From a virus: 64,000 bases of DNA. The notes under the pieces were generated by a model, which was not told the DNA's origin, searched no databases, and worked only from the letters and a program-made list of their open reading frames with translations. Below, piece after piece: positions 26,390-26,755 of this stretch. A program made the translations under genes and the position numbers. Position 1 is the stretch's first letter, and the number at the start of each line of letters is the position of its first letter. Location: IMG/VR virus record IMGVR_UViG_3300003323_001383. The stretch is one strand, 5' to 3'.

Positions 26390-26755
26390 TCAGCCGTAGT
26401 CGCGGTCCCTGCCGCGCCGTCTCCGGCCGTCCTGCCGGCCTCTTCCGTCAGGAGGTGGGTATCCTCCTGACGGGGCCCTCGGCCGGGGAGCGGGACCTCC
26501 GGAGCGCGGCTTCTCGACGGCCTCGCTGACGTTCAGCCGACGCCCGTCGAGCATGGAGCCCGACCAGCGCTGGATGGCCGCCTGGGCCTCCGCCTCGCTC
26601 GACATAGTGATGAAACCGAACCCTCGGCTGCGGCCCGACTCCCGGTCCGTGATGATCAGGGACTCGGTCACTCCCCCGCACTGGGAGAACGCGAGCTTTA
26701 GCTCGTCGCTCCCGGTGTCGAAGGACAGGTTTCCTACGTACAGCTTTCTTCCCAT
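26390..26755 (-). CDS. RRM-type RNA-binding protein with Arg/Gly-rich tail
   Basis: RNP-2 KLYVGNL and RNP-1 RGFGFITM motifs; GGAG SD 9 nt upstream. Confidence 0.75.
   Translation of the reverse strand: MGRKLYVGNLSFDTGSDELKLAFSQCGGVTESLIITDRESGRSRGFGFITMSSEAEAQAAIQRWSGSMLDGRRLNVSEAVEKPRSGGPAPRPRAPSGGYPPPDGRGRQDGRRRRGRDRDYG

Follow-up and report, generated by a model that had tools for sequence, protein, structure and literature searches.

The window analysed here, a 64,000-nucleotide stretch of viral DNA (IMG/VR record IMGVR_UViG_3300003323_001383), carries at positions 26,390–26,755 of its minus strand a complete gene, running from ATG to TGA, for a 121-amino-acid protein with an RNA recognition motif (RRM). 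An earlier note made from the letters alone had picked out this reading frame as encoding an RRM protein with intact RNP-2 and RNP-1 motifs and an Arg/Gly/Pro-rich tail, and each of these points was borne out. The gene is present in the list of open reading frames (ORFs), is recognised by Pfam RRM_1 and recurs as an exact protein in public metagenomes, where a search of 5.8 billion proteins found it on a 95.5-kb contig. The identical gene, with its neighbours, also turns up in a root metagenome, on a contig of an independent ENA assembly, and the locus is therefore not an assembly artefact. The ATG is preceded at 7 nt by a Shine-Dalgarno-like GGGAG, read from the sequence (26,763–26,767, minus strand), and a 50-amino-acid ORF (26,769–26,921) precedes the gene, its stop codon being 13 nt upstream of the same ATG.

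The match of the protein to Pfam RRM_1 (PF00076) is strong (E=1.9e-19; 69.7 bits against a gathering threshold of 20.7) and covers nearly the full length of the profile, with residues 5–74 aligned to profile positions 1–69 of 70. AlphaFold2, run on a 113-sequence alignment, gave the canonical β1-α1-β2-β3-α2-β4 fold (β1 4–8, α1 16–23, β2 29–36, β3 43–51, α2 54–64 and β4 75–78), with a predicted local distance difference test score (pLDDT) of 91–95 over residues 1–80 (26,516–26,755, minus strand). In a Foldseek comparison with the PDB the top 50 matches were all RRMs, the best having target-normalised template modelling (TM) scores of 0.91–0.96 and a root-mean-square deviation (rmsd) of ~1 Å. 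The RNP2 motif KLYVGNL occupies residues 4–10 (26,726–26,746, minus strand), the hexamer LYVGNL being residues 5–10 preceded by K4, and the RNP1 motif RGFGFITM occupies residues 44–51 (26,603–26,626, minus strand). The aromatic RNA-stacking residues Y6, F46 and F48 sit on β1 and β3 of the model, and the protein is predicted to bind single-stranded RNA. The remaining residues, 81–121, form the C-terminal tail EKPRSGGPAPRPRAPSGGYPPPDGRGRQDGRRRRGRDRDYG (26,390–26,515, minus strand, including the stop codon), which is disordered (pLDDT 52–65). Its 41 residues include 11 Arg, 9 Gly, 8 Pro and 4 Asp, and it carries a PPP-D motif and a terminal DYG.

Relatives of the RRM protein

To place the protein among cellular RRM proteins, we scanned GTDB, using one genome per species, and compared the best 80 matches. 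The matches listed include hundreds of single-RRM genes at least. The best 80 of those listed share 49–62% identity with the window protein over residues 1 to ~85 only, none of them matching the tail, and they come from Chthoniobacterales and other Verrucomicrobiota, Polyangiaceae and other Myxococcota, Planctomycetota, Gammaproteobacteria and others. The best NCBIfam match is the prokaryotic model NF058537, Rbp_regulator (81.5 bits, E=3.9e-23, positions 2–79 of 79); since the score is below the cutoff of 100, the protein is a relative of this family rather than an equivalog. Eukaryotic RRMs are more distant, with Foldseek identities of up to 46% for plant GR-RBPs and 41–42% for CIRBP. Another solved RRM, PDB entry 7JLY, which bears the name 'RNA Binding Protein PG1', is at 44%. 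Nucleolin, PABP and hnRNP A1 have the top PDB scores because several RRMs are summed in each. The label 'eukaryote-style' given to the protein in the earlier note therefore does not fit, the bacterial Rbps being closer than the eukaryotic proteins (41–46%) and the best NCBIfam model being prokaryotic. The wider eukaryote-like flavour that the note drew from other genes of the window fades as well: the protein resembling the major vault protein (MVP) recurs in published huge phages, and SNF2 domains are common in bacteria and phages.

After the exact protein, the next-best homologs in the 5.8-billion-protein search are 121–179 amino acids long, with an alignment identity of ~52–84%, and all are metagenomic. 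We compared 28 clade members drawn from these relatives, some of high and some of low GC content, with 164 other sequences, using an 84-column alignment of all 192 sequences both for identities and for a neighbour-joining tree. The 28 members form one group in the tree, recovered in 157 of 200 bootstraps, so the comparison with bacterial Rbps that the earlier note had suggested sets the clade apart. The same note had reasoned that best homologs among common host Rbps would point to ordinary host-derived cargo. The best homologs proved instead to be syntenic orthologs on phage-like contigs. Within the clade, K4, L5, Y6, G8 and N9 of RNP2 and R44, G45, F46, F48, T50 and M51 of RNP1 are invariant, as is R116 in the tail, where P100 and P101 are each kept in at least 90% of members. 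Eight signature positions (E18, K20, L21, Q25, C26, W64, K82 and R84) separate the clade from cellular Rbps: every member has six to eight of the eight residues, and none of the 164 other sequences has more than three.

The high-GC members share a mean domain identity of 0.73; the figure drops to 0.67 between them and the low-GC group, and to 0.54 between the clade and non-members. Measured against each well-sampled bacterial phylum, the mean identity of the clade is 0.52–0.55, equal to the distance between Myxococcota and Verrucomicrobiota (0.52). Assigning a host from the nearest bacterial Rbps consequently fails, the well-sampled phyla being about equidistant. Tail ends rich in RD occur also in Rbps of Polyangiaceae and Chthoniobacterales, that is, in both Myxococcota and Verrucomicrobiota, and so single out no host phylum. 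The most similar outsider (P0050) lies in an ordinary bacterial chromosome context, with dihydroorotate dehydrogenase, PilM and the ATPase of a type II secretion system.

The ratio of nonsynonymous to synonymous divergence (dN/dS) over the RRM domain is 0.16–0.43 in pairwise comparisons where dS is unsaturated; the gene is thus under purifying selection. The GC content at third codon positions (GC3) tracks genome GC, the RRM gene having a GC3 of 0.72–0.88 in the high-GC members and of 0.26 in L011, a low-GC relative. In the window the value is 0.81, versus 0.87–0.98 for most neighbours. The tails also separate the clade from cellular Rbps. In its high-GC members they contain 26% Gly, 21% Arg, 11% Pro and 11% Asp, with a mean longest Gly run of 2.7; 17 of 24 phage-clade tails end in DYG, and the GGY and PPP-D motifs are conserved. 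Bacterial Rbp tails, unlike these, are 56% Gly, contain poly-Gly runs (mean longest 7.5) and end in R-W or R-Y. With 9 Gly among 41 residues, the window tail does not have the poly-Gly/RGG C-terminus that marks the glycine-rich class of type I cyanobacterial Rbps, plant GRPs and CIRBP. Judged by its sequence, the RRM protein has branched off from the bacterial Rbp family as a divergent form specific to the phage lineage.

RRM proteins are rare in phages, as the earlier note had supposed. A tblastn search of 50,697 phage records gave three RRM matches. Two of these belong to 'Acinetobacter phage MD-2021a', where the neighbours topA, rep, rpmB and rpmG resemble a bacterial chromosome; the count is therefore inflated, the record (L129, CAKLQH020000005.1) looking like a bacterial chromosome labelled as phage. 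Transporter genes also lie around the RRM gene in this record. The third match, in Microcystis phage MaAM05, has zur and mggB as neighbours, and its origin is uncertain. PHROGs holds no family for the RRM protein, and a search of IMG/VR with the single RRM protein found no relative. Two narrow peptide patterns taken from the clade alignment retrieved eight RRM loci from IMG/VR, several of them on contigs of 184–416 kb, and none of the eight is syntenic with the window.

Synteny and gene content of the element

The large contigs examined are all syntenic with the window: L001/L100 (88 kb, GC 0.67), L004 (160 kb), L005 (156 kb, with L006 at 52 kb), L007, L011 (72 kb, GC 0.40) and L121 (69 kb, GC 0.40). 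The syntenic lineage spans a GC range of 0.40–0.68, with contigs of 69–160 kb; the window itself is ~68% GC throughout. The common order is an AAA ATPase, a methyltransferase, a suppressor tRNA, the MVP-like gene, a response regulator and a transfer-messenger RNA (tmRNA) in some, an HNH endonuclease, small ORFs, the RRM gene and a gene for a protein resembling ribbon-helix-helix (RHH) proteins. At some distance beyond this gene, whose RHH-like product has 158 amino acids, the order continues with DUF3307 and DnaJ. Of these arrangements only the adjacency of the RRM and RHH-like genes persists in both the high-GC and the low-GC sub-lineage.

Identity of the RRM domain to the window protein falls from 88% in L001 to ~73% in L004, L005 and L007 and 64% in L011. 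The MVP-like protein, whose gene we used as an unbiased entry point for sampling relatives, shows 82% identity in L001, 65% in each of L004, L005 and L007, and 59% in L011. The two proteins thus diverge in the same order, which fits vertical co-divergence. The MVP-like protein (877 amino acids, with MVP shoulder and Vault_3 domains; 31,343–33,976, minus strand) is very strongly conserved, at 59–82% identity with the 40%-GC relative included, and its conservation exceeds that of the RRM protein. Homologs occur in 28 metagenome loci, including a 436-kb contig, and proteins of the huge phages LR756500, LR756501 and LR756503 (462–735 kb) are 39–44% identical to it. This putative structural protein may be a major structural or shell component.

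Other genes of the window tie it to huge phages as well. Over 64% of its length, the 1555-amino-acid product of one giant ORF shares 31.5% identity with a protein of LR745208, a 485-kb uncultured huge phage. It also matches gp420 of Bacillus phage G and a tail fibre of Tunturi_5, a Tunturiibacter phage of 309 kb. The family A DNA polymerase (PolA), which has a 3′-5′ exonuclease, likewise matches LR745208. A full-length DnaJ chaperone (49,761–50,864, plus strand; phrog_14336, E=3.7e-69) has homologs of 26–36% identity in many phages, including the Lak megaphages and huge phages of 635–642 kb. Other enzymes encoded in the window are an HNH endonuclease, DnaB-like and SNF2 helicases, a NinI-like phosphatase and a D12-class DNA methyltransferase, and there are genes for sigma factor-like and response-regulator proteins. 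As to size, for which huge or jumbo phages are set at more than 200 kb, the syntenic contigs reach 160 kb, unclosed, and a more distant MVP-bearing contig is 436 kb long. We conclude that the element is very probably a relative of the huge or jumbo phages.

The RRM gene lies within a co-directional, tightly spaced block on the minus strand, in which the order of transcription is the tmRNA, the HNH endonuclease, four small ORFs, the RRM gene, a 65-nt spacer, and the RHH-like, PTH2 and HDIG genes. The RHH-like protein (25,848–26,324, minus strand) was so called from its N-terminus by eye; by synteny no other gene is found so regularly directly downstream of the RRM gene, and the protein has no Pfam, NCBIfam or PADLOC match. 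It is followed by the PTH2 peptidyl-tRNA hydrolase (25,455–25,844, minus strand; Pfam PTH2 E=8.9e-26) and by a 300-amino-acid HDIG protein (24,529–25,431, minus strand). The latter corresponds to the C-terminal half of a CCA-adding enzyme (TIGR02692 positions 214–444 of 466, E=7e-26; PDB 3WFO residues 306–474, E=2e-8), without the nucleotidyltransferase head, and, standing beside PTH2, it may be a tRNA 3′-end phosphoesterase. In some relatives PTH2 has a paralog, so that one copy stands upstream of the MVP-like gene and the other downstream of the RRM gene (L001 716–1039 and 10,954–11,307; L007 1–184 and 9259–9645). The fetched 20.5 kb of L011 hold the upstream copy only.

Between the RRM stop codon and the RHH-like gene, an alignment of six relatives revealed a 24-nt intergenic motif, TGTAGGAACATACGGTTCCTATCC (26,354–26,377, minus strand), which is unique in the window, with 0 copies expected by chance. 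One copy stands in the same place in L001, L002, L003, L005, L006, L007, L009 and L100, and the right half (TACGNNTCCTATCC) is kept in eight related loci. In both the window and L001 the motif forms a 7-bp inverted repeat, and the two versions differ by compensatory changes (TAGGAAC/GTTCCTA versus TAGGAGC/GCTCCTA). It is likely to be a candidate promoter or operator of the RHH-like/PTH2/HDIG unit or a hairpin at the 3′ end of the RRM mRNA, and a control element of the downstream unit is a more likely candidate than a target of the RRM protein. A role as a general phage promoter was rejected, because the motif occurs once in the window. A scan of the region at 24–30 kb for sigma-70 promoters and intrinsic terminators gave nothing informative adjoining the RRM gene, and Rfam found no known cis-regulatory RNA adjoining it in the window and five relatives. 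In the sub-group of L004, L005 and L007, an extra ~260 nt separate the RRM stop codon from the conserved motif. This insert holds a conserved antisense ORF of ~75–77 amino acids (L004 7161–7394, L005 8399–8632 and L007 8420–8647, on the minus strand of those loci), which is absent from the window and L001.

The tmRNA lies ~2.2 kb upstream of the RRM gene (28,971–29,318, minus strand) and was detected by ARAGORN and by Rfam (RF00023, 85.1 bits, E=1.5e-31). Its position between the response-regulator and HNH genes is conserved in the relatives (L001 7426–7774, L004 4297–4666, L005 5558–5926 and L007 5907–6278; Rfam 70.8–96.4 bits), among which the tag peptides vary (ANDNSIAAAA, ANDNDIAYALTG, ANDNNTVQALAA and ANDNAYAAAA). 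No SmpB gene was seen near the tmRNA. Two tandem suppressor tRNAs with anticodon UUA (34,225–34,299 and 34,303–34,376, minus strand) stand directly upstream of the MVP-like gene, and this site is syntenic in the high-GC relatives (L001 2166–2239, L005 1255–1329 and L007 1489–1562), with a tRNA at the same site in the low-GC relatives (L011 4993–5069 and L121 9860–9933). The anticodon is UUA, reading TAA, in the high-GC relatives and CUA, reading TAG, in L011. Among the stop codons of the 61 called genes of the window, 31 are TGA, 28 TAG and two TAA. In-frame TAA codons with coding-like flanks occur at only two sites (29,736 and 35,482, minus strand), and with two candidate sites only, TAA recoding through the suppressor tRNAs is unconvincing. 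Nine further tRNA genes (Tyr, two Lys, Gln, Asp, Asn, two Met and Trp; ARAGORN, seven confirmed by Rfam) are interleaved with small ORFs at 60,675–63,391 on the plus strand. The broad picture of an element with a heavy investment in RNA and translation functions holds.

Elsewhere in the window, giant ORFs of 984, 1555 and 1508 amino acids have no Pfam family and are separated by a GIY-YIG homing endonuclease (8788–9573, plus strand; phrog_314, E=1.3e-27), which lies between the 1555- and 1508-amino-acid ORFs. Its GC3 of 0.81, against 0.95–0.98 for its neighbours, suggests a mobile insertion. Three membrane-associated candidates close the giant-ORF block (14,211–17,296, plus strand): a lipoprotein-like protein (14,211–15,239) that combines a lipobox with a Gly/Ser linker and a Cys-rich domain, a candidate transmembrane protein (15,853–16,362) and a signal-peptide protein with an outer-membrane-like C-terminus (16,676–17,296). 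They hint at a Gram-negative host and possibly serve lysis or spanin functions.

Origin and possible roles of the RRM protein

The reading that we favour, and consider somewhat better than an even bet, is that the protein is a functional single-RRM Rbp of bacterial type that was anciently captured by a huge phage-like lineage, has been kept vertically and serves phage RNA. An ancestor of the lineage would have captured a bacterial Rbp long ago, with vertical inheritance since. The β-sheet face with the invariant Y6, F46 and F48 would bind single-stranded RNA, while the positively charged, disordered Arg/Gly/Pro/Asp tail would add non-specific RNA affinity and possibly contacts to partners. L21 on α1, C26, and W64 at the end of α2 lie on the helical side, off the RNA face, and may form a phage-specific contact patch; L21 is expected to be exposed, because it stands between the core-facing L19 and F23. 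During infection the protein would most likely act as an RNA chaperone or mRNA-binding factor that stabilises phage transcripts or aids their translation, a role suggested by analogy with cyanobacterial Rbp3 (PMC12232666) and the Bacteroides RRM-1 proteins (PMC13370968). Alternative targets could be the phage-encoded tmRNA or tRNAs. The protein may form one part of a toolkit together with the tmRNA, the suppressor tRNAs, the tRNA array, PTH2 and the HDIG protein related to CCA-adding enzymes. RNA binding in vivo, the targets, a pro-phage effect and functional ties to the neighbouring genes are what we infer.

Several observations weigh against this reading. The 28 clade members were picked from the top similarity matches, so that the monophyly of the clade is partly by construction, and a phage-like context was verified for only ~8 of them. 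Estimates of dS are imprecise in a genome with such extreme GC3. Capsid, portal and terminase genes were recognised neither in the window, by Pfam or PHROGs, nor in the fetched flanks, which leaves the phage assignment to the proteins shared with published huge phages and to gene content. The distant MVP-bearing contigs L103 (436 kb), L104, L118 (131 kb) and L127 (98 kb) have no RRM gene within 10 kb, so the RRM gene marks a sub-lineage rather than all carriers of the MVP-like gene. Finally, the low-GC relatives break the link to PTH2 and HDIG, PTH2 being upstream of the MVP-like gene in L011, and the fetched parts of L011 and L121 contain no tmRNA. Because of these two features a dedicated operon of the RRM protein and tRNA repair is unsupported, and the tie of the RRM gene to a translation module is weak.

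The main alternative is that the protein mimics or competes with a host Rbp, or acts as an anti-defence factor, and so redirects the post-transcriptional control of the host. The RNA face is identical to that of cellular Rbps, with invariant RNP residues, and the tail and helical face have diverged in a clade-specific manner, which is the pattern expected if specificity was retained while partners changed. However, apart from weak matches of HNH, neither the RRM protein nor its neighbours matched a PADLOC defence model, the literature search found no relevant paper, and the idea is purely inferential. We know of no anti-defence family that uses RRM_1, and we regard this role as rather unlikely. 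A little less probable still is a bolder version of service to the phage, in which the protein would be a translation-takeover factor, its RRM face recognising phage transcripts, the phage's own tmRNA or the suppressor tRNAs, and its contact patch and tail coupling these to ribosomes or to the tRNA and peptidyl-tRNA enzymes encoded nearby. If this were true, phage messages would be translated or rescued in preference to host messages, and the protein would be a prokaryotic-virus counterpart of the use of RRMs by eukaryotic viruses and the first functional RRM_1 class in phages.

That the gene is ordinary, recently acquired host cargo, a passenger Rbp without a phage-specific role, seems improbable to us. 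The domain is clearly of the bacterial Rbp type, with 50–62% identity to chromosomal Rbps of soil Verrucomicrobiota, Myxococcota and Planctomycetota, huge phages often carry host-like auxiliary genes, and the GC3 of the window gene is somewhat below that of most neighbours. Against this, the best 80 of the GTDB matches listed do not exceed 62% and none of them extends into the tail; the position is kept from 40% to 68% GC with a fully adapted codon composition, and the clade has signature residues and a tail of its own under purifying selection. On the best identity among the GTDB matches listed, the kept position and the adapted GC3, the gene does not look like host cargo. We give equally little weight to the idea that the contig is a fragment of a cellular genome or another extrachromosomal element, and the RRM protein simply the Rbp of that organism. 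Besides the lack of recognised virion genes in the window, this idea draws on the failure of the RRM patterns to find the close lineage in IMG/VR and on the occurrence in cells, too, of tmRNA, tRNAs, DnaJ, DNA polymerase I, DnaB and PTH. It is countered by the many ORFs (most of them) without a Pfam family, the homing endonuclease between giant ORFs, the HNH endonuclease, an Endonuclease VII in L011, the phage-family DnaJ and the NinI-like phosphatase, and by the matches of the 1555-amino-acid ORF, PolA and the MVP-like protein to huge phages, including a jumbo-phage tail fibre. Moreover, no ribosomal-protein or core-metabolism gene was seen in ~64 kb plus flanks, and the IMG/VR viral contigs L093 and L094 share a similar arrangement of HNH, RRM and DSPc genes. 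Derivation of the RRM from a eukaryote or a eukaryotic virus is scarcely credible. Multi-RRM eukaryotic proteins do top the PDB scores, chloroplast-type two-RRM plant proteins are among the matches, and tails rich in RD and RG recall eukaryotic RD/RS domains. Those high scores are sums over domains, however; single-domain bacterial Rbps are at 50–62%, versus 41–46% for plant GR-RBPs and CIRBP, the best NCBIfam model is the prokaryotic Rbp_regulator, and bacterial Rbps have RD-rich ends as well.

Bacterial RRM proteins have been little studied, and phage-encoded ones are essentially undescribed. The biochemical activity of the protein is predictable, and the protein is not a new kind of molecule. 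What is new is a distinct RRM clade, marked by signature residues and a tail of its own, that has become fixed in a soil lineage of phage-like elements with very large genomes. If the protein steers the fate of RNA in infection, it would add a post-transcriptional layer to the translation-gene repertoire of huge phages and, as a compact RRM scaffold that has diversified naturally and carries conserved tail motifs, would lend itself to study. If it is a general RNA chaperone only, it would still be a clean case of ancient capture and long-term domestication by a virus.

Comparison with known RRM proteins

The nearest functional precedent in phages is the RegA translational repressor of T4, which, like the window protein, is a small phage-encoded RNA-binding protein. 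It differs in lacking the RNP1 and RNP2 motifs, and to our knowledge it is not a member of Pfam RRM_1; a relationship in sequence is not expected. RegA is described as having an RRM-like fold and is present in group 2.1 jumbo phages; mention of RRMs in the same jumbo-phage survey is limited to this fold (PMC7824862). In the literature that we searched, no classical RRM_1 protein is reported from a phage.

The RRM proteins of the eight IMG/VR loci (L092–L099) are also single-RRM proteins, 41–57% identical to the window protein. Their 20-kb flanks contain no other match to a window protein except one unrelated match each in L095 and L097. L093 and L094 (184 and 308 kb) have an arrangement of HNH, RRM and DSPc genes that resembles that of the low-GC L011, and their tail, EPPPDRSRGRR...GGYDDFE, follows a clade-like plan: it is rich in Pro and Arg, includes PPPDR and a run of basic residues, and has an end that is acidic and aromatic. 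These two, like the others of L092–L099, lack the L21/C26/W64 signature.

The eukaryotic proteins CIRBP/hnRNP A18, RBM3 and plant GR-RBP1/GRP7 have the same fold (target TM 0.86–0.92, rmsd 1.0–1.6 Å) and the same plan of a single RRM with an RG-containing tail, at 41–46% identity to the window protein. They differ in being more distant than the bacterial Rbps and in that their own tails are RGG- or Gly-rich.

Among bacterial proteins, the cyanobacterial type II protein Rbp3 has the architecture of the window protein, its RRM leading into a disordered tail that is free of poly-Gly and carries short conserved motifs. Rbp3 has a non-glycine-rich C-terminal region with a conserved PDPRWA in a disordered segment, binds the 3′ regions of mRNAs and co-purifies with ribosomes (PMC12232666). 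The GGY, PPP-D and DYG motifs of the window clade have no sequence similarity to PDPRWA, and there is no thylakoid context here. The RRM-1 proteins of Bacteroides are post-transcriptional regulators in cold adaptation (PMC13370968), and the titles of further papers indicate work on bacterial RRM proteins in A. baumannii and on RtmR of Vibrio. As a group, the bacterial single-RRM Rbps (cyanobacterial Rbp1/2/3, Bacteroides RRM-1 and the chromosomal Rbps) are like the window protein in having an N-terminal RRM_1 of ~80 amino acids, canonical RNP1 and RNP2 motifs, a short, disordered, basic tail and an aromatic residue at or next to the C-terminus. The window protein is set apart from them by its phage-like synteny, by L21, C26 and W64, and by a Pro/Arg/Asp tail that is free of poly-Gly and ends in DYG.

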